Made by a program: the position numbers and the translations under genes
The notes under the pieces: model-generated
What the model was told of the DNA's origin: nothing
Database searches by the model: none
The model's input: the letters and a program-made list of their open reading frames with translations, nothing else
Shown here: positions 53,617 to 64,000 of the stretch, one piece after another
Layout of the letters: each line of letters starts with the position of its first letter
Numbering within the stretch: position 1 is the stretch's first letter
Sequence record: NC_094493.1
Origin: a phage
DNA: 64,000 nt
Direction: 5' to 3' (one strand)

Positions 53617-55290
53617 TTCTAATAGTTGCCCTGCTTTTATATTATGTCATAGAAACACCCGAAGGGGTGACCAAAGGTCACCTGGCATAGCCAGCGAAAG
53701 ATTATTAACTTGCTAATCGTTATCATGCAAACGAATGGCATGGCTTATAATTTTTGAGCAAATAGTCTATACGTGAACAGTGAGGCATGCAATAGTAACA
53801 ATTGTTATTATATCCAGTGTTTAGTTTGCCCAGTGTGTCACTATTATGTCATATTATGTCACAGTATGTCAGACAAGTTTTTCTCCTCTTTGTCAAGTGC
53901 TGCATGAAAAATTTACAAGCTGGTATGGTAGCATTTTTGCGGTCCTGTTTACATTCAGTAATGTATGTATAATCCTTGTTGTGTGGGCGTTTAGACGTCT
54001 AGACGGTTGGAAGTCCACAGGTCAATATCTAATCTATCGGCTGCTAACTATATCCCACACAAATAGTAAGAAATATGATTGTTATATGCGTAAACAGTAA
54101 CTCATGTTATCAATCCCTGTATGTATCGCCAGTGGTGCGCATAATGGGTATTATGTTAAATTGCCCGTAATGATAATGGTTCTCACAATGATATGTATTC
54201 TCATTCCCCCACACAAAATAGATTGCAAATGTTGTGCCACTATGTGAACGGCCTCACCTATTAATTTGCCTCACTGCCTCGATATTTGAGAATTGTTATA
54301 AGAATGAGAATGATTCCCATTTCGTCCGCCTGGCAGCACTCCTGTAGGACAAGCACAAAATCGTGGCATAGCTGGACCTGTTCAGATATTTCTGGCTGGC
54401 TCTTCAGGTCTGTGTGGGAAAAGCCAACCCCCTCCGGCGGCGGGGAGGGTGTCAATTAAAAAATTTATGGGGTATATGAAGCGCTCTTCAGGTAAGGCAT
54501 GTACTATGGGATGAAACCCTCTTCAGGCAATGATATTTGTGGGTGTGATATTTGCTGGAAAGCCAGATATGACGGGACTCCCGGCGGGGCAGGGGTAGTA
54601 CAGACAGGGAAAATATGGGGATGTAGTTGGGTGAATTGATCGGGCAGGTAGAGTACGGAATATGTTACAAGTATGTTAAATATGGAGGGTGAATATCTGC
54701 AGGATTTGTGTGTAAAATCAAAGACTTAAGTAGTGTTGTGGTATTTTCTATAAATAATTCAAGTTTAATAGGTAATATTTGTCTCTATCCACTTTGTGTG
54801 GTAAACAAATTCAAATGAGATTGGTTTACAAGTGTATACATAATATGCAAATTAAAGATACAAGAAACCCCCCTCCCCCTTCGGCTACCATTCACCTTTT
54901 CCTCTGACTGGTACTTAAACACTTATTCAGACTCTTCAGGTTATCACCCATACACCATATGGCAGTGACTGGTGTCCTCCGGCCCCTCTTTCGTCACCCG
55001 TCCGCTTCGCCATGCTAATGCCATAGCCAAATGTTCGGTTGTTCACCCTGTTCACTCAGGTGTATCTCCATACCCCTTCAAACCGAAGAGAACAGAAAAC
55101 CCGAATTACTCGGTAAAAGAAAAGAGAAGAACTTAATTTTATCAGGATAGGCAAGAATGTCAAGGCATGACTGCTCACTAAACAAGCAAACAGTCATGTG
55201 TGGGAGGTAAGTGATTGTGGTGGTAGGAAATTTAGTTGAAAGATGTGTTATAGGTGCTTCCAGCACTTTAGCCTGGCAGCTAATTGTGTG

Positions 55291-55506
55291 TCAGTCCAGC
55301 GGTTCATCCTCTACTTCACTGAAATCAATGTTCATGGTCTCTTCCCAACCATCGATCTCAGCACAAGAGTGGAGTTCTTTAGGGTTTACTCCCAAAGCCT
55401 CAGCAACAGAGTCTATATTTAACACCTCTGGCAGGTATGATTCATCGAATTCAAGGTAAATCAGGCCACGAGTGTTGTCAACTCCACCAAATATTTCTAT
55501 CTTCAT
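55291..55506 (-). CDS. hypothetical acidic protein
   Basis: ATG at 55506 preceded by AGGAGA; begins MKIEIFGG, the MK[IV][KE][IL] N-terminus seen in several genes of this block; ORF-track start 55572 trimmed. Confidence 0.55.
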   Translation of the reverse strand: MKIEIFGGVDNTRGLIYLEFDESYLPEVLNIDSVAEALGVNPKELHSCAEIDGWEETMNIDFSEVEDEPLD

Positions 55507-55626
55507 GAAATCTCCTCTGGAAATGAGAGTGTGAACAGGGTTTATACGTTCCAATGCACTGGAATTATGCACGTTTGCCTCTTCAGACCATGCTTTAGCA
55601 TGAGGAACCTGTGTGGGCTCGGTGCT

Positions 55627-55839
55627 TCATAGTCTACCACCCCTGAACTCTTCGTGCTCAGGCATAATAGAGAACCAGATATCTACGATGTCTTCCCACG
55701 TTAGGTCATCAGCCTCAGGATCTACCTGGAGCGAAGATGGAGAATCTTCAGAATCGAAGTTTTCCTCTTTCACTGGCTCAGCCAAGGGACATATAGTCAC
55801 TCCTTTGGATGTCTCTTCAAATGCATGTGTGTTTATCAT
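55627..55839 (-). CDS. hypothetical acidic protein (start uncertain)
   Basis: ORF-track ORF 55627..56040 begins with TTG; first in-frame ATG at 55839; D/E-rich C-terminus. Confidence 0.4.
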   Translation of the reverse strand: MINTHAFEETSKGVTICPLAEPVKEENFDSEDSPSSLQVDPEADDLTWEDIVDIWFSIMPEHEEFRGGRL

Positions 55840-56145
55840 GTTCCACCCGTGAGTATTCCGGCAACAGCCACTATGGACGTAATGATCATCAGGATCACCA
55901 CCAAAACCTCTGACAATGTTTTCATTGTGTGTCCCATATTCTCCAAACGATGTGTGGATACTATCACTGGAGCGGAAATGTGTCAACAGAAACGTCGCGA
56001 GGGTTTGGTTAAAATCCGAGCGTATGGTGATTTGGGTCAAAACGGACGTGCGTTCTCGCTACGCTCGAAATATAAAGTTGTTTGTAGGAAGCTCTTAAAC
56101 GCTCTGTAATGAGATTAACTACCCAAGGTATTCAATCGTGCACCA

Positions 56146-56174
56146 GACAAAGAAAAGGACGCCACAGAGCGTCC
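56146..56174 (-). terminator. intrinsic terminator (minus strand)
   Basis: GGACGCtctgtgGCGTCC followed by TTTTCTTTG on the minus strand, just downstream of the gene ending at 56200. Confidence 0.6.
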
Positions 56175-56199
56175 TAGGTGTCTTAAATTTGATATTTTG

Positions 56200-56511
56200 C
56201 TATACCCATGAGGGCTTATCAAGATTGGAGTAGCTAAAAGGTGTCAAAAGGTGACTGTCAAAATCTCTCAAACTATCCAGATCTTTTTCCTCGTCCTGGC
56301 ACCATCTGTGCCTACATTTATTGTTGTAGTGCATAGAATGCATAGCGTTCTGCAACTTAACAGGTACAAGTGATTCAGGAGTAGATAGTATTGTTGGGTA
56401 TGCCAGAACCACCTCAAACAGTGGAAACACATCGAAACTAAAGTCTACCTCTGCAGAGGTTGATGGCATATAGGAGTATTTAGCCGCCTTTGTAGACATA
56501 ATCCACCTCAC
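56200..56511 (-). CDS. hypothetical protein (103 aa)
   Basis: 4-nt start/stop overlap with upstream gene. Confidence 0.55.
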   Translation of the reverse strand: MRWIMSTKAAKYSYMPSTSAEVDFSFDVFPLFEVVLAYPTILSTPESLVPVKLQNAMHSMHYNNKCRHRWCQDEEKDLDSLRDFDSHLLTPFSYSNLDKPSWV

Positions 56512-56834
56512 ACAGGTTTGATAATACCTTTACCGAATAACTCTTTGTATCTAATCTTGTCCGGATCCCCCTCCTGGATAATTTCGAAGACAATATCCAA
56601 CCCTGGGATAATCACTTCTCCAGTGTCAAGTTTGGCAAGAACAAAACCAGAAGGTTGAATGGTTTCCCAGTTGCGACGATTGGAATAGAAGACCTCGAAA
56701 ATATCACCGACCTTGATCTGTTGATCAAGATGTTCAAGATTCTCTTTCATATAGACGCAGCGTATTTTTCGTGCAGGCCATAGACCACCTGCATCACGTT
56801 CATTCAATTCTTTTACAGTGATCGGTATACCCAT
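56508..56834 (-). CDS. hypothetical protein (108 aa)
   Basis: Co-oriented ORF downstream of the 56852 terminator. Confidence 0.55.
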   Translation of the reverse strand: MGIPITVKELNERDAGGLWPARKIRCVYMKENLEHLDQQIKVGDIFEVFYSNRRNWETIQPSGFVLAKLDTGEVIIPGLDIVFEIIQEGDPDKIRYKELFGKGIIKPV

Positions 56835-56851
56835 CTCAAATCTCCTTCATA

Positions 56852-56881
56852 GATAGTAAAAAGAGGGGCCCAAGCCCCTCT
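56852..56881 (-). terminator. intrinsic terminator (minus strand)
   Basis: AGAGGGGCttggGCCCCTCT followed by TTTTTACTA on the minus strand. Confidence 0.6.
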
Positions 56882-56887
56882 TTGTCA

Positions 56888-57193
56888 TTATTCTACAGAG
56901 CGTTTGAACAGAATGTCTGCCTCAGACATGTGCTCAACCTCTTCTTCGATTTTAGCTCGACGTTTTTCAGCCTCATAGCGAATATCGAACTCGGTAGCCA
57001 CCAGAGATTTGATGAATTTAGGAGAATACAGGTGATCCTGCTTCTCAACGAGAATGATATCCTTAATGGCATCTTTCAGATCTTTAATCTGAAGCTGGAG
57101 TTCCACCAGTTCTTCGATTGTTTTGCGAAGGCGATCACGTTCTGCAGTGTCAGAAGGAAGAGAGGTGAACAGTTCAACTTTAGATTTAGCCAT
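56888..57193 (-). CDS. hypothetical coiled-coil protein (101 aa)
   Basis: Heptad-like charged helical sequence (ELVELQLQIKDLKDAIKD). Confidence 0.55.
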   Translation of the reverse strand: MAKSKVELFTSLPSDTAERDRLRKTIEELVELQLQIKDLKDAIKDIILVEKQDHLYSPKFIKSLVATEFDIRYEAEKRRAKIEEEVEHMSEADILFKRSVE

Positions 57194-57221
57194 AGTAAGA
57201 GTCTCCTTATGTTGTTTTAAA

Positions 57222-57539
57222 TTAACGTTCTACAAAAATACCGTTCAGTTCAATAACCAAGAATTTCTGGTCTTCACTATCGTCTCGTGCCAGCACCTCA
57301 CAGACGTATCGGTCATCCCCATCATCATCGCAGTCAAATACAAGACTGAGGACTTTATCATGATAAACTTTCGCCACTACCGCCTCGTAAGTATTGCCGA
57401 TTGTGAATCCAAGATAATCTCCAATGCATTTGACAACAACATGATCACCAGCATTCAAGTCAATCTTCGTCATTACTGCGCTCCTTGGGTAATAATACTG
57501 TATGTAAAACTTTAACCAGAGATGTGAATAACGCCCCAA
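57222..57539 (-). CDS. hypothetical protein (105 aa)
   Basis: Co-oriented ORF, acidic. Confidence 0.5.
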   Translation of the reverse strand: MGRYSHLWLKFYIQYYYPRSAVMTKIDLNAGDHVVVKCIGDYLGFTIGNTYEAVVAKVYHDKVLSLVFDCDDDGDDRYVCEVLARDDSEDQKFLVIELNGIFVER

Positions 57540-57628
57540 AACACACCGATAGCGCTAAAACAGACAAGGCCATCATTAAAGCTTCAGTAAAATCAGTCAC
57601 CCCTCACCTCTTGTTAGTCACTATACTG

Positions 57629-57892
57629 TCATTTATCCTTGCCGTCAAGAACTTTTTTAAATCTTTCAGGGATATCGCCTGTTCTTAGATAGCTCATGAC
57701 CTCACAAGGTTCCCACTTAAATTTCTTACAAAGCAGGGCGGCTGAGATTGTTTCATTGCGAAAAGAAAGGATATTAATATCCCATTCTGAGAACCCCAAC
57801 TTCCGAAGGGTAGCTACAGAAATCCTCACCGCAACCCAGCAGCAAAAACATGCAACAAACGCCACTGCTATAACCCACATCAGGATGTTCAT
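57629..57892 (-). CDS. hypothetical membrane protein (87 aa)
   Basis: N-terminal hydrophobic helix MNILMWVIAVAFVACFCCWVAV. Confidence 0.5.
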   Translation of the reverse strand: MNILMWVIAVAFVACFCCWVAVRISVATLRKLGFSEWDINILSFRNETISAALLCKKFKWEPCEVMSYLRTGDIPERFKKVLDGKDK

Positions 57893-57981
57893 ACAAGCAC
57901 CTTACTGAAATACAAGACACAGTGTTAAGGTTACTGACCAGCAAATAATTAATAGTGCCGTTGCAACCTTGGCAAGATTTA

Positions 57982-58269
57982 TCATAGTGCCTCTAAGATT
58001 TCATATCCTTCTGGTCGGAATACAAGCCACTCCGTGGCTCCGTTTGGTCGATACGCTTTATACAGAACAACCTGATCTCGGCACATGCACATGGCTACAT
58101 AGTTTTCATCCACACCTGCAGCCTGCATTGCATCTTCTTCTCCGGCAACCGCCTTGCTTACAACTTCCTTGGTAGGAAGGTGTGCGATCAGCTCGTCACC
58201 ATCATTAATTCCAAAATGGCTTAGTTCTCCATTGGTATCTTTAATCTTAATCTTAACCAGATCTTTCAT
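57982..58269 (-). CDS. hypothetical acidic protein (95 aa)
   Basis: Abuts the next gene (58269). Confidence 0.55.
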   Translation of the reverse strand: MKDLVKIKIKDTNGELSHFGINDGDELIAHLPTKEVVSKAVAGEEDAMQAAGVDENYVAMCMCRDQVVLYKAYRPNGATEWLVFRPEGYEILEAL

Positions 58270-58598
58270 TAGTCTTTCTCCAGGTTCAAAGGCCCTAAGA
58301 TTTCATATGCCAGATTAGAAGTTACCAGAGGATCTTCTGCATCTTTAGTATTGTACCACCCGTGAATAACCAGAGTCCCACTTTGTTTCATGTCCAACTG
58401 GAACTCTTCTGCCGTTTCCTCATCCAGCTCCAAGATTTCCATAAGGTATTTGATGTTAGGAAGGTATGCAGCTGTTACAGTTCCCTCCACCAAACCTTCG
58501 GGCCAACCTACATCTGGATGACAAGTAGGAACCAGGTTGGTCAGCTTAATGGTGTACGCTTTTTCTGCACGAGCCTTCAGTAACGGGTCAATCTTCAT
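58269..58598 (-). CDS. hypothetical acidic protein (109 aa)
   Basis: 1-nt start/stop overlaps on both sides. Confidence 0.55.
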   Translation of the reverse strand: MKIDPLLKARAEKAYTIKLTNLVPTCHPDVGWPEGLVEGTVTAAYLPNIKYLMEILELDEETAEEFQLDMKQSGTLVIHGWYNTKDAEDPLVTSNLAYEILGPLNLEKD

Positions 58599-58948
58599 TA
58601 TTCGTCCTCCTCTTCGGTGCCTGCTTCCAGCAATAAGTTAAGAATATCTTCTGCACAAGGCTCATAGAACTCTTGGCCTTCATTATCGATGATTTTGTAG
58701 TCATCTCCACGAATAATCAGAGGATCACTCTCAAAATTATCAAGACCTTTAACAACGACAACACGATCAATTGCCATCATTGTAAGAACTTTATCGACAT
58801 CTTCCTCTGCTACACCATACTGCAGCAGAATGTCTTTAGTAGGAGGAACAGCATCCACCACAACACCGTTACCAAAACCTTCCGGGAGTTTAGCTAAAAT
58901 ATCTTCCGGAACCACATTCACATCAAAACCGGTAATTTCTACTTTCAT
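58598..58948 (-). CDS. hypothetical acidic protein (116 aa)
   Basis: Begins MKVEITGFD; D/E-rich tail. Confidence 0.55.
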   Translation of the reverse strand: MKVEITGFDVNVVPEDILAKLPEGFGNGVVVDAVPPTKDILLQYGVAEEDVDKVLTMMAIDRVVVVKGLDNFESDPLIIRGDDYKIIDNEGQEFYEPCAEDILNLLLEAGTEEEDE

Positions 58949-59209
58949 TTACAGCACCTCTTCGTCAACTACTTCATAAAAATGGCCTGGGATTGCAATA
59001 GCGTTCTCACCTTCACCTACAAACACAGTTCCGTCAAGAATCAACATCATAAGAATTTCTGGAATATCCTCTTCCGGAACGTTGCCAAAACCTTTAATCA
59101 GCGTGTAGGTTGGAAGATTTACCTCTAAGATGCCACCATCTTTAGAGCGGAAATCAACACCATCCTGAATCTCTGCCATTTCAAGGTTTTTCAGTTTAAT
59201 CTTCATCAA
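58949..59209 (-). CDS. hypothetical acidic protein (86 aa)
   Basis: Begins MMKIKLKNL; directly downstream of a candidate minus-strand promoter. Confidence 0.55.
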   Translation of the reverse strand: MMKIKLKNLEMAEIQDGVDFRSKDGGILEVNLPTYTLIKGFGNVPEEDIPEILMMLILDGTVFVGEGENAIAIPGHFYEVVDEEVL

Positions 59210-59238
59210 TCAGTCTCCCGTCTTGTTAAGATGAAGGT

Positions 59239-59268
59239 ATTATTTCACACAGGGTTGGTGTTGTCAAC
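59239..59268 (-). promoter_or_regulatory. candidate sigma70 promoter (minus strand) with palindromic -35
   Basis: Minus-strand TTGACA, about 18-nt spacer, AATAAT; the -35 sits in the near-perfect palindrome GGTGTTG(T/A)CAACACC. Confidence 0.4.
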
Positions 59269-59285
59269 ACCTGTGTGCAAGAAAA

Positions 59286-59681
59286 TTACTGAAACAGTGC
59301 GGATAAATTACCTTCTGGTGGGAACTTATCTGCCAAAAACGGTGTTAGCACAGTAGCCTTCTGAAGATCTGGGGTCCACTCGTTGTTCAGAACATCCCAG
59401 TAGTACGCAATGTTGCTGTGTGGGTGCCGCATTACGAACTTTTTCCCTTCGTAGTCATCTGAAACCTCTACAGAAGAAATAACAACAGAATCTTCAAGGG
59501 TTTCTTCATAGAAAGATCCGCCTTCAAATTTCCAACGAGATGCAAGAGCCCCTGCCTTGAACGCTGCAGATAACGGACTGTCGGCAAGAACATACATTTC
59601 TTGCACTCTGCCGCTGCGATCTTTACTTCTTACGTTGTACACAGTATCTGAGCTATACTCAACACGGTATAGGCTTACCAT
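59286..59681 (-). CDS. hypothetical protein, paralogue of 61488..61886
   Basis: Shares FV..HP.S...YW......WTP....T.L with the 61488 gene. Confidence 0.6.
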   Translation of the reverse strand: MVSLYRVEYSSDTVYNVRSKDRSGRVQEMYVLADSPLSAAFKAGALASRWKFEGGSFYEETLEDSVVISSVEVSDDYEGKKFVMRHPHSNIAYYWDVLNNEWTPDLQKATVLTPFLADKFPPEGNLSALFQ

Positions 59682-60040
59682 TACCGCACCTCCTCAATAA
59701 CTTCCACATCTGAACCTACCACAAATGCAAAAGGACAGGTTTCATGAAAGACATCCGGATCGCCGCCAAGCTTGCTAACAATTTCTCCACCACTAATAAA
59801 CACAAGCTCACCGATATTCATCAGATTGCTGAAATAGTATCCATAATGATTGAAGAATGCAGCAGGGTCAGGTAGACTAGTAGCCTCAAGTTCTACATCT
59901 GTTGAGATTACTTTCTTATCATAACCTCTCGCCTTCTGAGATGCAAGATCCGCAGAATCTTCAGGCGACCGGAGATGCACAGGAATTGTTTCACCAATAA
60001 AGCGTACTTTCATATTATCACCCAACAACCATAGCTTCAA
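59681..60040 (-). CDS. hypothetical protein (119 aa)
   Basis: 1-nt overlap with downstream gene. Confidence 0.5.
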   Translation of the reverse strand: MKLWLLGDNMKVRFIGETIPVHLRSPEDSADLASQKARGYDKKVISTDVELEATSLPDPAAFFNHYGYYFSNLMNIGELVFISGGEIVSKLGGDPDVFHETCPFAFVVGSDVEVIEEVR

Positions 60041-60281
60041 AAGGGGTCATGAACGAATAAACGGCATCATCATCTGCTTCAGGGAATGCTCCCAAAGACT
60101 TCATGTCTGAGCCCTTGACAAATACAAGGTTTTGATCAAAAGCTTCTTGGGGATCAATCCGATACATATTTCGTAGAATGTCGCTTACCTCCTCATCAAG
60201 AGGTGAGTATGCTGTGCACGTTTTTCCGATCAAGCTTTGAGAATCAGGGTATCCACCTGAAGTTTTAAAATAAACAATCAT
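60018..60281 (-). CDS. hypothetical protein (87 aa)
   Basis: Co-oriented ORF overlapping downstream gene by 23 nt; start approximate. Confidence 0.45.
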   Translation of the reverse strand: MIVYFKTSGGYPDSQSLIGKTCTAYSPLDEEVSDILRNMYRIDPQEAFDQNLVFVKGSDMKSLGAFPEADDDAVYSFMTPFEAMVVG

Positions 60282-60372
60282 ATAGTATCACCTCTGGTAA
60301 GAGATTGGGATTCCTTTCCCACAAATAATTACAAATCTTCCTTATCGAGGAAGTATGCTAATCCAAGCAGGA

Positions 60373-60642
60373 TTATTCCTCTACAATCTCATACACATCA
60401 GGAGTTACAATCAACTCTTCTCCGTTACCCGGTGCAACAAACACCACCAAACCTTCAGGTGTGTGCTTTTTAGCCATCTCGATAACATCTTCGCGCAGAG
60501 CTGGCTCCATCAGATCAAAACCTTCACCCAGGGCATCACTAACCACCTTCATATAGTCCACTGGTTGTGCTTCAACAATCATGCCTTCAACCAGTCCACA
60601 GTTTTTGTCTGCCAGCTCAGTTTTGAATAATTTAATTTTCAT
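60373..60642 (-). CDS. hypothetical acidic protein (89 aa)
   Basis: Begins MKIKLFK; ends ...DVYEIVEE. Confidence 0.55.
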   Translation of the reverse strand: MKIKLFKTELADKNCGLVEGMIVEAQPVDYMKVVSDALGEGFDLMEPALREDVIEMAKKHTPEGLVVFVAPGNGEELIVTPDVYEIVEE

Positions 60643-60779
60643 TTAGAGGTCTCCTCAATTATTTGATATTAATAGCCGTAACCTAACACATTAACTACAA
60701 TTGCGATTGCAAACATAATTTCAAAGCATGCAATCTCTACATTTGGGACTAATTTCTTAATCACACCCATTGTAGCACC

Positions 60780-61097
60780 TCATTCTCCAAAGTCAATCTT
60801 TACTTTGCCTTTCCCCTTACCTTTCTTTCCACCACATTTAGCCAGCTGACGTGCTGCAACATCTACCATACGGTCAGTTGCCTCGTAAGCATCACTGCCT
60901 TTAGCTTTGGCAATAACTTCTTTTCCAGAATTGTCAAAAATGAACGCCATAACTTCCTGGTGATCATTTTCAACTTTTACACTCACACGTGCATAGTTGG
61001 CAGAGGGGTGCAAACGCTCCAGCTTAGACATTTTGTGGGAAATGAAAGACACCATACCTTCAGTGATTTCTACGTTGCCAGTGATTTCAATTTGCAT
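60780..61097 (-). CDS. hpf: ribosome hibernation promoting factor / RaiA-family protein
   Basis: MQIEITGNVEITEGM...KLE...VKVEN...KGSDAYEATDRMVDVAARQLAK lines up with E. coli HPF (MQLNITGNNVEITEAL...KLE...LKVEK...EGQDMYAAIDGLIDKLARQLTK, from memory); ATG confirmed with AGGAA RBS; Lys/Gly-rich tail. Confidence 0.8.
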   Translation of the reverse strand: MQIEITGNVEITEGMVSFISHKMSKLERLHPSANYARVSVKVENDHQEVMAFIFDNSGKEVIAKAKGSDAYEATDRMVDVAARQLAKCGGKKGKGKGKVKIDFGE

Positions 61098-61105
61098 AAC
61101 GTGTT

Positions 61106-61136
61106 CCTTTTAAAGAAGAGGGAACCAAACCCTCTT
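61106..61136 (-). terminator. hairpin (possible terminator/attenuator) upstream of hpf
   Basis: AGAGGGtttggttCCCTCT followed by TCTTTAAAAGG on the minus strand; the T-run overlaps the hpf RBS, so it may be a 5'-UTR structure. Confidence 0.4.
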
Positions 61137-61179
61137 TGAAAACAATGATACTAAATCTGAAGCGTTGTGTCAACAGTTT

Positions 61180-61470
61180 TTACAGATTGTTGTCGATAGT
61201 ATTTAAAATATCTACAGCAAGATCTGCCATTTTTCGAACATACTCTGCAAACTCAACAGGATCCTTGATCAAAGAATTTACAGGGTCGTACCCTAGAGCG
61301 TTCAAAATGGCTGCAGCATCTACAACCTTTTCATCATTTGCAAAGATCTCTCCGTCAAACTTATAGGTCCATTTTGAGTCAATCTTGGCAGGGCATGGCT
61401 GGTCCATGCTTGTTACACCATCGTCTTTAACCTCTCCTGCGTTATCAATATTCAGAACTAAATCCATCAT
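61180..61470 (-). CDS. hypothetical acidic protein (96 aa)
   Basis: Co-oriented ORF. Confidence 0.55.
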   Translation of the reverse strand: MMDLVLNIDNAGEVKDDGVTSMDQPCPAKIDSKWTYKFDGEIFANDEKVVDAAAILNALGYDPVNSLIKDPVEFAEYVRKMADLAVDILNTIDNNL

Positions 61471-61487
61471 AGTGGCACCTCACTGTT

Positions 61488-61886
61488 TCAGTTTAGCTTT
61501 TCTTCAACAACCCCATAGCTTGGGACAGAATCAAGAGCTTTCTGGTTTAAAAGTGGTGTAGCAGAATCTGCAAACGGTGTCCAAGTTTTTGTTCTGGAAT
61601 TCCAGTAATGCTTCACTCTGGAATCTGGATGCACTATAACAAAAACTTTTTCACTTGTCAACACATTAATTTCTTCTACACCCTTGCTGATAATTTCTCC
61701 GTCATAGCCCCCAGTCTGGTATCCTTCGTACCAGGTTCTTGCATAGGCATAGCCAGCCTGCCAGCATGCAGCCTCCTCCGAGGTGGAGACTACGTAGAAG
61801 TCCTTCTCAAATTCCGGAATACGCCCTTGCTTTACGCTCCAAGCTCCGCGAATTTTCATTGTAACTTTGAACAGTTTATTTTTCAC
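61488..61886 (-). CDS. hypothetical protein, paralogue of 59286..59681
   Basis: FVIVHPDSRVKHYWNSRTKTWTPFADSATPLL versus FVMRHPHSNIAYYWDVLNNEWTPDLQKATVLTP. Confidence 0.6.
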   Translation of the reverse strand: MKNKLFKVTMKIRGAWSVKQGRIPEFEKDFYVVSTSEEAACWQAGYAYARTWYEGYQTGGYDGEIISKGVEEINVLTSEKVFVIVHPDSRVKHYWNSRTKTWTPFADSATPLLNQKALDSVPSYGVVEEKLN

Positions 61887-61898
61887 AACGGTTACCCA

Positions 61899-62153
61899 TC
61901 ACAGCTCTACAATATCTGCATCTGACCCTACCCCAAAGGCATAATAGGACTCTTCCCCGAAATAATATTCAGGTGCACCAGCGGTGATCAGGTCTGATCC
62001 TAAGATAAACACCACGTTGTGGCCTACATAACTGTGATGTTGCCGCACAGGATCATCCCACGGCAACCCTTCAAAGTATACCGCAGGGACGACCTTTCCT
62101 TTCAGGAAGGATTGCCCCAAGTAGACGTTAGAATCAAGAATTTTAACCTTCAT
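61899..62153 (-). CDS. hypothetical protein, tandem paralogue (pair with 62143..62370)
   Basis: MKVKILDSNVYLGQ...GSDLITAGA...DADIVE versus MMKVKVLDSRFYIGQ...GADLIAAGA...DVEIVE. Confidence 0.6.
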   Translation of the reverse strand: MKVKILDSNVYLGQSFLKGKVVPAVYFEGLPWDDPVRQHHSYVGHNVVFILGSDLITAGAPEYYFGEESYYAFGVGSDADIVEL

Positions 62154-62370
62154 GATCGTCCTCCACTATCTCTACATCCTCACCTAGGGCAAAGTTGTAG
62201 GTCCACTGACTGTCAAAGCATTCCTGAGATGCACCAGCGGCAATAAGATCTGCCCCTTTTATTTTTAAAAGGTCAGGGTAATCTTCGTTAGGGACAGCAG
62301 TAAACACTTTCCCCACTAAAGGCTCCTGACCAATATAGAATCTTGAATCTAAAACTTTAACTTTCATCAA
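62143..62370 (-). CDS. hypothetical protein, tandem paralogue
   Basis: See 61899..62153; 11-nt overlap between the pair. Confidence 0.6.
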   Translation of the reverse strand: MMKVKVLDSRFYIGQEPLVGKVFTAVPNEDYPDLLKIKGADLIAAGASQECFDSQWTYNFALGEDVEIVEDDHEG

Positions 62371-62654
62371 CGGTCTCCATCAGGTGGTTGTGGGACGTAA
62401 ACACTGTTACGAATATCGTCCGCAGTATAGTAATAAGTGTCTCCAACCCTATCTCTGGCTGCAATGTACTCTGCTATACCAATAAGTGCCATTGATTTGG
62501 TGGCGTATCTTCCCCACTCGTTAGCTCCCCAGTAGAATTTAGACCAATAGGGAATAAGACCGAACAAATATACCTTTTGACGAACTTCCCAGTAAGTGCC
62601 TTTCCCGACAAGTTTAAACTCAACTTCACCACTGTTAATCTTTTTCATTATCAA
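62367..62654 (-). CDS. hypothetical protein (95 aa)
   Basis: 4-nt overlaps on both sides. Confidence 0.55.
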   Translation of the reverse strand: MIMKKINSGEVEFKLVGKGTYWEVRQKVYLFGLIPYWSKFYWGANEWGRYATKSMALIGIAEYIAARDRVGDTYYYTADDIRNSVYVPQPPDGDR

Positions 62655-62947
62655 TCTCCCTCTACCGTGGTCGGATTGTCAGTAAGAAATTGAGCATTAG
62701 CTGGAGGCACACCTGACATTTTCCACACGACCATAAGTTTGTAACCAGGCACTCTATTAAGCGCAGATCGAGTAGAGTTTGTGCACGTATACTTTCGCTT
62801 TCCAAACCCGTTCTCCATCATAATCCAGTACCCAGTATCTTTGTCACCAGGTATTGGTAGACCACCTTCATCAACCCACTGAATGGACCACGGCACGATG
62901 GCTACAGCTTTATATTTAAACTTTTTAAACCACTCAAAAAGTTTCAT
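62651..62947 (-). CDS. hypothetical protein (98 aa)
   Basis: 4-nt overlap with downstream gene. Confidence 0.55.
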   Translation of the reverse strand: MKLFEWFKKFKYKAVAIVPWSIQWVDEGGLPIPGDKDTGYWIMMENGFGKRKYTCTNSTRSALNRVPGYKLMVVWKMSGVPPANAQFLTDNPTTVEGD

Positions 62948-63042
62948 AATTCAGCCTCGCATAGACATAATCACTATAAACAGGCAAACAATGAATCCGA
63001 ATGCCACGCCACCCATAAACGTTAATATTGATGCAATCATAG

Positions 63043-63228
63043 TCAATCAGCCTCGCTTGGCAACTCTTCCACCTTAACATGCCGAAAAGTGTTACCGTAA
63101 TGGTTGATCCATGACATCAGCTCACTTTCTTGCTCTTCCTCTGGGATGAACTCTCGAATACTGACAAGTTTTAAGAAAACCCAATCACAATCTGCACCCA
63201 TTCTACCAGACAGACAATAGTGCTTCAT
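63043..63228 (-). CDS. hypothetical protein (61 aa)
   Basis: Co-oriented ORF. Confidence 0.45.
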   Translation of the reverse strand: MKHYCLSGRMGADCDWVFLKLVSIREFIPEEEQESELMSWINHYGNTFRHVKVEELPSEAD

Positions 63229-63247
63229 AAAAACCCTCCATCCTGGT

Positions 63248-63448
63248 TTAGAATACTGCCTCTTTTAATGATCCAAGGAGCAGCAGGTGTGAAATCTGAT
63301 CCACATCCATGGTAGATTCAATCTCCTCTTTTTTGAAAGGTTCTCGGCAAAACAGTACTACATTTGGGTTTTCGCTACGCACTATATAATACAGATCGTT
63401 CAAATCATTCTCATAGTAGGTATTAAATTTAAGAATTTTGTCACTCAT
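63248..63448 (-). CDS. hypothetical protein (66 aa)
   Basis: 4-nt overlap with upstream gene. Confidence 0.5.
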   Translation of the reverse strand: MSDKILKFNTYYENDLNDLYYIVRSENPNVVLFCREPFKKEEIESTMDVDQISHLLLLGSLKEAVF

Positions 63449-63732
63449 TTTCTAATCCTCTTCTTAGATTTTTGTGCAGAAACGCTTTCTGCAATACGAG
63501 ACAGGCGTTCTTCTGAAGCTTTACCTACCCCAGGTTTCTTGAGCGGGTTATCTTTATGACCGCAATCCAATTGGATGCTAGATACCTCCCCAACCTTGTA
63601 AGTCAATTCTAACAAAAGGTTGTCGTCCTTGTCAAATGTTTTTACGATAAATTTTTTATCGTCCTCCTGAACTTCATACCTAGTACCTGCAGTATACAGC
63701 ATGGTGCCATCAGTGTAGGATATCCAAATCAT
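63445..63732 (-). CDS. hypothetical protein (95 aa)
   Basis: 4-nt overlaps on both sides. Confidence 0.5.
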   Translation of the reverse strand: MIWISYTDGTMLYTAGTRYEVQEDDKKFIVKTFDKDDNLLLELTYKVGEVSSIQLDCGHKDNPLKKPGVGKASEERLSRIAESVSAQKSKKRIRK

Positions 63733-63926
63733 TGCACCTCCTTCTGCTGCAACAGCATTAACTCTTTGTTGGAAATCTTTACTGCTGTCTTTATTGTTCC
63801 ATCTTCACGGAACCACGACCAGAATTCTACAGTGTCACCACTATCAAGCAAGGCATGACCATGGTAAAAATCCTTGTCCTTAGACAGTTTCTCATCTATA
63901 TCTGCATCGACACATTCGTGATCCAT
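63729..63926 (-). CDS. hypothetical protein (65 aa)
   Basis: Co-oriented ORF; upstream region runs to the window edge, so start unverified. Confidence 0.45.
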   Translation of the reverse strand: MDHECVDADIDEKLSKDKDFYHGHALLDSGDTVEFWSWFREDGTIKTAVKISNKELMLLQQKEVQ

Positions 63927-64000
63927 AGCATTTTGCCTGAATGCATCGGTTATGCCAATGCATGCCTTGCTCTCAAGACTGGTATATCCGATATCTTTTA

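Follow-up and report, generated by a model that had tools for sequence, protein, structure and literature searches.

Paralogue families and a repeated three-gene module in the small-protein block of an rV5-like Vequintavirus

The 64,000-nt stretch of phage DNA analysed here (NC_094493.1; hereafter the window) is that of a Vequintavirus and is 97% identical to phage rV5. Its last part, from position 55291 to 64000, is a minus-strand block of small genes which corresponds to ORF163 to ORF134 of rV5; the gene names used below (oNNN) follow the rV5 ORF numbers. A megablast search with 55291-63926 returned 121 phage records at 90-99% identity, the top matches being rV5-like Escherichia phages of the genus Vequintavirus. 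In the rV5 genome paper these genes form the end of a long leftward transcription unit comprising genes 82-163; an adjacent 'non-coding' box is mentioned, and the word 'paralog' is used 0 times (PMC3606486). The GenBank/RefSeq entries for rV5 place all block genes on the minus strand and call all of them 'hypothetical' except one 'sigma-54 modulation/RaiA' gene; two sigma70 promoters (P150 and P144) and one terminator are also annotated.

The gene model was rebuilt from open reading frames, Shine-Dalgarno sequences and the annotations of rV5, Bas50 and Bas54. It contains 28 genes, 27 of them complete, with products of 33-132 aa (median 91 aa). The initial annotation of this DNA was right about the small size of the proteins; its count of about 25 was too low. 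It also ended the block at 63926, which is an internal ATG: this is not a boundary, because o134, the most upstream gene of the block, runs off the end of the window. Similar genes continue beyond this point, with at least ten further ORFs in rV5. The genes are tightly packed, many neighbours abutting or overlapping, and are preceded by good Shine-Dalgarno sequences. All are on the minus strand:

55291..55506, minus: o163, 71 aa, pI 4.05, begins with MKIEI and closes with a strongly acidic tail; the block ends with this gene; GGAG ribosome-binding site; phrog_12108
55627..55839, minus: o162, about 70 aa, acidic; uncertain start; phrog_16356 spans residues 68-137 of the long ORF
56200..56499, minus: o160, 99 aa; orthologue of bas54_0140 (same position, same length, 99% amino-acid identity)
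56508..56834, minus: o159, 108 aa; phrog_12418; orthologues in lineages X and Y (see below)
56888..57193, minus: o158, 101 aa; phrog_639 (1e-21); PHROG/RefSeq label 'transcriptional regulator', unverified
57222..57473, minus: o157, 83 aa, acidic
57460..57600, minus: o156, 46 aa, hydrophobic, probably membrane
57629..57892, minus: o155, 87 aa, basic, N-terminal transmembrane segment
57982..58269, minus: o153, 95 aa; family C; intact here, frameshifted (ORF153/154) in rV5
58269..58598, minus: o152, 109 aa; family C (hhalign against o151 P=8e-6, Bonferroni-corrected 0.004)
58598..58948, minus: o151, 116 aa, pI 4.05; family C with an additional acidic C-terminal extension
58949..59206, minus: o150, 85 aa; family C
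59286..59681, minus: o149, 131 aa; family B, in third place in A-A-B module 2; orthologue of bas54_0150
59681..60013, minus: o148, 110 aa; family A; module 2; orthologue of bas54_0151
60018..60281, minus: o147, 87 aa; family A; module 2; orthologue of bas54_0152
60373..60642, minus: o146, 89 aa; family C, apart from the other four (hhalign against o150 P=2e-7, against o153 P=3e-6)
60669..60770, minus: o145, 33 aa, hydrophobic
60780..61097, minus: hpf, short-type ribosome hibernation promoting factor with a Lys/Gly-rich tail
61180..61470, minus: o143, 96 aa, pI 4.05
61488..61886, minus: o142, 132 aa, starts with GTG; family B, in third place in A-A-B module 1; orthologue of bas54_0157
61899..62153, minus: o141, 84 aa; family A; module 1; AlphaFold2 (AF2) model an SH3-like small barrel
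62143..62367, minus: o140, 74 aa; family A; module 1; forms a tandem pair with its paralogue o141
62367..62648, minus: o139, 93 aa, basic
62651..62947, minus: o138, 98 aa, basic; the Bas54 deletion starts inside it, at about 62710
63043..63228, minus: o137, 61 aa; missing in Bas54
63248..63448, minus: o136, 66 aa; missing in Bas54
63445..63732, minus: o135, 95 aa, basic tail; missing in Bas54
63729..64000, minus: o134, C-terminal 89 of 115 aa; the rest lies beyond the window end

Paralogy was assessed in an all-versus-all comparison of the block proteins. Smith-Waterman scores for 378 pairs were compared with 300 composition-preserving shuffles, giving seven links at corrected p<0.05; in addition, hhalign was run on orthologue profiles that drew on two diverged lineages (496 comparisons). 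The two tandem paralogue pairs proposed in the initial annotation are both statistically solid. The pair o141/o140 (at 61899 and 62143) has 41% identity, 53.5 bits, a Smith-Waterman z of 23 and an hhalign P of 5e-18; the pair o149/o142 (at 59286 and 61488) has 31% identity, 42.7 bits, z=17.7 and P=8e-17. PHROGs likewise puts each pair in one family. However, o149 and o142 are not in tandem, as seven genes lie between them.

The paralogy extends well beyond these pairs, to three families. The permutation test also links o148 and o147 to o140/o141, and links o150, o151 and o153 to one another. Family A consists of o140, o141, o147 and o148; family B of o142 and o149; and family C of o146 and o150-o153. 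Every member is supported in the hhalign comparison at a Bonferroni-corrected P<=0.025. Eleven of the 28 block genes belong to these phage-specific families, and arose by duplication within the block. A fifth family A member, rV5 ORF127, is found just beyond the window.

Read in the direction of transcription, the order is o140(A)-o141(A)-o142(B) and, further on, o147(A)-o148(A)-o149(B): an A-A-B module occurs twice. The genes of module 2 are separated by a 4-nt spacer and then a 1-nt overlap, and the module is flanked by spacers of 91 nt and 79 nt. Across modules the best pair is o141-o148, and o140 is slightly closer to o148 than to o147. Positional orthology between the modules is thus only partly consistent, and the duplicated unit may have had three genes or two. 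An exhaustive profile search with family B recovered the diverged members P0028 and P0029, which were used to fetch the syntenic blocks of two uncultured sister lineages, X (L010-L012) and Y (L013, L014). P0028 groups with o149 and P0029 with o142; the B duplication is therefore older than the split of the three lineages. The N-terminus of o142 is conserved with o149 and P0029, in support of its long form.

Families A and C both begin with MK[IV]K[IL] and close with a motif of the type [YF]E[IV]VE[ED]. A superfamily joining the two was considered and set aside as unproven: three rounds of profile comparison align the N-terminal strand only (first 17-28 columns, P=0.003-0.006, probability <=10%).

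Functional evidence for the block comes from Bas54 (phage MaxBurger, MZ501093), whose genes were mapped one by one onto the window. The HIDEN-SEQ preprint describes a saturated transposon library of this phage (10.1101/2025.11.20.689424). In Extended Data Table 8, bas54_0135-0168 are all classed as 'Non-essential' or 'Intermediate' on E. coli K-12 (10.1101/2025.11.20.689424), in agreement with the accessory character assigned to the block in the initial annotation. On clinical isolate CFE311 the picture is different for individual genes. According to the same preprint, bas54_0140 (a 'gene of unknown function' and the orthologue of o160) is needed against DS-28, a predicted two-gene defence system of CFE311, and the DS-28 sensitivity of the knockout was validated (10.1101/2025.11.20.689424). 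In the comparison of K-12 with CFE311, the log2 fold change (log2FC) is -6.77 for bas54_0150 (o149), -6.17 for bas54_0151 (o148), -7.16 for bas54_0152 (o147) and -2.14 for bas54_0157 (o142), with an adjusted p given as 0 for all four (10.1101/2025.11.20.689424). These depleted genes are the whole of A-A-B module 2 and the B member of module 1. The proposal of an anti-host module thus stands for at least part of the block, namely the o160 orthologue acting against DS-28 and the depleted orthologues of o149, o148, o147 and o142.

The signals that punctuate the block are as follows:

56156..56175, minus: intrinsic terminator that follows o160, with an 8-bp GC-rich stem and then a U-run
56860..56883, no strand assigned: intrinsic terminator between o158 and o159, 10-bp stem AAAGAGGGGC/GCCCCTCTTT with a U-run; annotated as a terminator in rV5
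59239..59277, minus: promoter P150, sigma70-type, TTGACA-17-AATAAT with TG; annotated in rV5
59246-59277: inverted repeat CACACAGG-N16-CCTGTGTG, spanning and centred on the -35 hexamer of P150
60337..60353, minus: weak hairpin within the 91 nt that separate o146 from o147
61116-61136, minus: 7-bp GC stem-loop downstream of P144, where the hpf transcript is predicted to begin
61145-61173, minus: promoter P144, sigma70-type, TTGACA-17-TATCAT; annotated in rV5

Three internal hairpins had been reported for the block; at least five are found, two of which are canonical intrinsic terminators. The terminator at 56156-56175 is 93% conserved in lineage X, where the flanking o160 is only 35% identical in amino acids. 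The terminator at 56860-56883 is possibly bidirectional, as it is palindromic. The inverted repeat at P150 may serve a phage regulator (for example o158) as its operator, or may simply form an RNA hairpin that ends the o147-o149 unit. The five top sigma70-like matches are all on the coding strand, and two of them are the promoters P150 and P144 of rV5. An Rfam scan of the block and the adjacent gap gave a chance-level match only.

Translational coupling through overlaps of 1-4 nt had also been suggested. Overlaps occur at eight of the 27 junctions: six are of 1-4 nt (ATGA, TGATG, TAATG) and two of 11 and 14 nt. Three of the remaining junctions have spacers of 0-4 nt and the rest have gaps of 8-360 nt. 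Coupling is plausible at the 1-4-nt overlaps, but these make up a minority of the junctions (6/27).

[quoted passage not shown] It is split into short operons by sigma70-type promoters of the host kind (P144, P150 and others) and by the two intrinsic terminators. Early in infection, their products would bind or inhibit host proteins, acting stoichiometrically. Some would neutralise strain-specific defence systems, as the o160 orthologue does DS-28; the o147-o149 module and o142 probably counter further factors of CFE311; and others, such as the short-type HPF, may modulate housekeeping machinery, here the ribosome. The paralogue families would provide a repertoire of related binders with differing specificities, grown by duplication. 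The genes are kept by purifying selection and their orthologues are dispensable in the laboratory; on this reading they become necessary on particular wild hosts.

Similar regions exist in large virulent coliphages. The T4 early and T5 pre-early accessory regions are likewise clusters of small, often acidic, non-essential genes. They are read from host sigma70 promoters, and some of their anti-defence or host-shutoff factors are essential only on particular hosts. These regions have no sequence homology to the block.

A number of points weigh against this reading of the block. The early timing is deduced from promoter type and genome position, and promoter-like sites overall are not significantly enriched (30, against 23 +/- 4 in shuffles). 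No block product has a known binding partner, and the AF2 model of family B, at pLDDT 47, was not used for a fold search. Vequintavirinae are unusually sensitive to restriction-modification systems in the BASEL phenotyping (PMC8594841), which argues against a potent anti-restriction activity in the block. A validated phenotype is on record for one block gene only, the o160 orthologue, and its source is a preprint; in the available text, follow-up is reported for bas54_0063 and bas54_0140 only (10.1101/2025.11.20.689424). Insertions in upstream genes may be polar on a single required gene, for example o149, and polarity of this kind could account for the depletion of all three of o147-o149. Finally, sheets S6 (K-12 versus CFE303) and S7 (K-12 versus CFE311) of the supplement hold identical numbers in the copy used. 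One sheet is therefore a duplicate, probably pasted; the depletion data were assigned to CFE311 because they contain both hits which the preprint text ascribes to that isolate.

A more specific but rather doubtful proposal is that the A-A-B module is a multi-component counter-defence device not recognised before, in which two small SH3-like proteins and a 131-aa partner act jointly and the two copies have diverged against variants of a host immunity system. Joint action of this kind would explain why the whole of module 2 and the B member of module 1 are needed on CFE311.

Ribosome hibernation factors bear on the question of whether the block serves mainly for host takeover. The embedded hpf gene noted in the initial annotation is confirmed and is the sole block gene with a Pfam domain (PF02482, Ribosomal_S30AE, 48.3 bits against a cutoff of 23.7, residues 3-88). 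It also matches TIGR00741 (HPF/YfiA; 45.9 against a cutoff of 40.9). The HPF model NF007780 scores 55.8 bits and the RaiA model NF007654 scores 17.6 bits; the former remains below the NF007780 equivalog cutoff of 125 bits. Among PDB entries, chains of E. coli HPF (2rql, 4v8h, 6h4n) match best. The phage product aligns with E. coli short HPF (YhbH) over residues 1-89 (E=5e-12), is only moderately similar to it, and has a Lys/Gly-rich C-terminal tail, KCGGKKGKGKGKVKIDFGE, which E. coli HPF does not have. Among 50,697 phage records searched by tblastn, hpf is found in Vequintavirus only.

Shutoff or redirection of host transcription, translation and metabolism could be the main business of the block, with counter-defence a minor part; this is possible but not favoured. 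The presence of a short E. coli-type HPF homologue with its own promoter is consistent with it, as is o158, the most conserved gene, with its 'transcriptional regulator' label. In related BASEL phages, early products that accumulate are toxic to the host, as seen in the T5-like phage Bas33 and not in the present phage (PMC13250531). In contrast, hpf and nearly all other block genes are dispensable on K-12, and the hpf orthologue has a log2FC of -0.53 on CFE311, i.e. it is not depleted (10.1101/2025.11.20.689424). The recorded phenotypes are all host-strain-specific; consequently, defence evasion fits better than general takeover. A general takeover role is plausible for some members (hpf, o158).

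The regulator name of o158 is backed by the phrog_639 label only. A GapR-like regulator was considered for this protein and rejected: PF10073 scores 14 bits against a cutoff of 22.6, and the best E value in a PDB profile search is 0.15, to unrelated chains.

The composition of the block had suggested DNA mimicry. The products are indeed mostly acidic: the median pI is 4.69, pI is below 5.5 in 21 of 28 (43-46% of the other window ORFs), and D+E content is 17.1% compared with 13.4% elsewhere. Nine of the 28 have a clearly acidic tail, with a net charge of -3 or lower in the last 12 residues. The recurrent MK[IV][KE][IL] N-terminus is likewise borne out, the exact form being present in five of 28 block genes (o163, o151, o150, o146, o141) and in 0 of 79 other ORFs; a relaxed form is found in seven block genes, and 13 of 28 start with MK. 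In families A and C and in o163, this start forms the first beta-strand. In the AF2 model of o141, strand 1 covers residues 2-5 and coincides with the MKVKI motif; the recurrent start would be the amphipathic first strand of compact domains that begin at residue 2.

Family A is the family with a confident model. The o141 model, built from the family A alignment, has a pLDDT of 91 and a pTM of 0.82, with five strands and short helices, and is probably an SH3-like small beta-barrel. Its structural neighbours are SH3/KOW/PsaE-like barrels (SH3, KOW/Spt5, PsaE, OapB and the retroviral integrase C-terminal domain) and many uncharacterised small phage proteins. Barrels of this type are typically binding modules. 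Foldseek with the family A model found nothing in the PDB. Within BFVD, models with this fold include a second Vequintavirus protein, an 87-aa protein as long as o147, and uncharacterised small proteins both from T4-like phages (RB49 and Merlin, TM 0.63-0.64) and from others.

Sequence searches were largely negative. Apart from hpf, the genes match only PHROGs of unknown function or small size. A Pfam search with the 28 products found nothing at E<=0.1 except hpf and chance-level matches, and NCBIfam and PADLOC scans of ten selected block proteins found nothing beyond hpf. Word-indexed searches of 5.8 billion proteins gave 13, 4 and 10 clusters for o141, o142 and o151, all close relatives, and the exhaustive family B profile search gave six matches among 1.84 billion representatives. 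One of these six, the NHL-repeat protein P0031, was dismissed as spurious, as it shares a 'WTP' motif only. No tblastn match to o141, o142 or hpf lies outside Vequintavirus in the phage records searched. The block products are small, mostly acidic, single-domain proteins without enzymatic signatures.

On this evidence it is very unlikely that the acidic proteins are mimics of the Ocr, ArdA or Arn type, whose carboxylate arrays titrate restriction enzymes or DNA-binding host proteins. The low median pI (4.7), the acidic tails, the small size and the accessory location are all what such proteins would show. Moderate acidity is common, however, as about 45% of the other small window ORFs also have a pI below 5.5. 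No match to a known mimic, anti-restriction or defence family was found in Pfam, in the PDB or, for the ten selected block proteins, in NCBIfam and PADLOC, and the sole confident model, the 84-aa SH3-like barrel of o141, has a net charge of only -6 and no mimic among its structural neighbours. The exceptional susceptibility of Vequintavirinae to restriction-modification (PMC8594841) also speaks against this role.

The same locus is present in rV5 and in other vequintaviruses (e.g. bas54_0135-0160) at 96-98% nucleotide identity, with the same order, promoters and terminator. The window differs from rV5 in having an intact o153, and from Bas54, which has no o133-o138, in having kept o134-o138. 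Across more than 100 genus isolates the block is 96-97% identical in nucleotides. Lineage X has orthologues for 24 of the 28 genes in conserved order (o162 and o145 are not found there), and lineage Y also holds orthologues of many block genes; amino-acid identities to the window genes are 27-97% in X and 27-73% in Y. The most conserved gene is o158, with dN=0 within the genus and 87% and 73% identity in lineages X and Y, respectively; the o163 orthologue in lineage X is 60% identical. When pooled, dN/dS comes to 0.09-0.13 for comparisons inside the genus and to 0.17 for the comparison with lineage X, and in no gene does it exceed about 0.8, even where substitutions are few. The block genes are under purifying selection.

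The block was originally described as diversifying. At a dN/dS of about 0.1 and 96-97% nucleotide identity this is not borne out at the level of sequence; variation occurs instead through duplication, deletion, replacement and hybrid genes. The B duplication was followed by differential loss among the lineages: lineage X has another gene, of 96 aa, at the o142 position, and lineage Y lacks both o147-o149 and hpf. Natural hybrids are found in public assemblies: P0011 and P0012 join the N-half of o140 to the C-half of o141, P0013 the N-terminus of o141 to the C-half of o143, and P0017 o142 to the C-half of o143. These chimeras show recombination or deletion between neighbours at short similarities and, together with the natural deletions, show that individual genes are expendable and recombining. 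In lineage Y (L013, L014, 9532-10644), an IS605-family TnpB/OrfB of 370 aa (PF01385 and PF07282) sits between the o158 homologue and the o160/o159 homologues.

Gene calls in the o160-o163 interval disagree among rV5, Bas50 and Bas54. rV5 ORF161, which has a CTG start, is interrupted in the window by an in-frame stop codon and probably does not represent a gene. The GTG start of o162 in rV5 is not conserved in the window, and the gene is absent in lineage X (L010). The stretches 56.0-56.2 kb and 55.5-55.6 kb are poorly coding. These irregularities notwithstanding, the idea that a large share of these ORFs are spurious gene calls, and the block partly an annotation artefact in poorly coding DNA, can be dismissed, since dN/dS and synteny in the diverged lineages exclude it and the Shine-Dalgarno sequences, the conserved cores of the family alignments and the confident o141 fold also oppose it. 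Within the long o162 ORF region, a different reading frame of the minus strand (55836-55925) contains a short alternative ORF, with GGAG as its ribosome-binding site, for the hydrophobic 29-aa peptide MKTLSEVLVVILMIITSIVAVAGILTGGT.

The locus itself, with more than 100 GenBank copies, and its general accessory and counter-defence character are already in the literature. In published Vequintavirus annotations all genes but hpf are 'hypothetical', and the paralogue families and the A-A-B repeat are not described. Four points appear to be new here: a family C with five members, a larger family A, an A-A-B repeat that coincides with the screen hits, and a probable SH3-like fold for family A.

Vequintaviruses are among the commonest broad-host-range coliphage isolates and are candidates for therapy and biocontrol, with about two thirds of their genes lacking an assigned function. 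A third of the block genes fall into three families, and the repeated three-gene module matches genes needed on a clinical isolate; about 30 anonymous ORFs are thus reduced to a few testable units. As the families have next to no members among 5.8 billion database proteins, any function found for them would be that of a new protein family.

The region to the left of the block is a convergent junction. It has no credible ORFs at 53850-55290 and is conserved like coding DNA within the genus; no Rfam family matches it. In the matching intergenic region of Bas54, of about 2 kb, no transposon insertions were obtained, according to the HIDEN-SEQ preprint (10.1101/2025.11.20.689424). The motif TTGTGTGGG (<=1 mismatch, both orientations) is about 16-fold concentrated in this gap, which holds seven of its 29 window matches and three of the five exact ones. 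An element at 55033-55211 holds a hairpin with a 14-bp stem together with a sigma70 promoter on the minus strand that is close to consensus (TTGACA-16-TAAAAT with TG, 55136-55163). Conservation of the element in lineage X is 88%, whereas the adjacent o163 has only 65% nucleotide identity there. A putative RNA of about 100 nt downstream of this promoter has no significant structure (z=-1.7). The segment 53450-53720 is 97% conserved.

Eighteen GenBank records (MG065635-MG065690) named 'Campylobacter phage', with Campylobacter jejuni as host, are 97-98% identical to the E. coli Vequintavirus block. These genomes are probably mislabelled or contaminant.

The plus-strand genes at about 50-53.8 kb, orthologues of bas54_0123-0134, face the block. 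In the same Bas54 table, the small genes bas54_0132, 0133 and 0134 are depleted on CFE311, and 0123-0129 more weakly; the facing plus-strand block may also hold host-specific factors.

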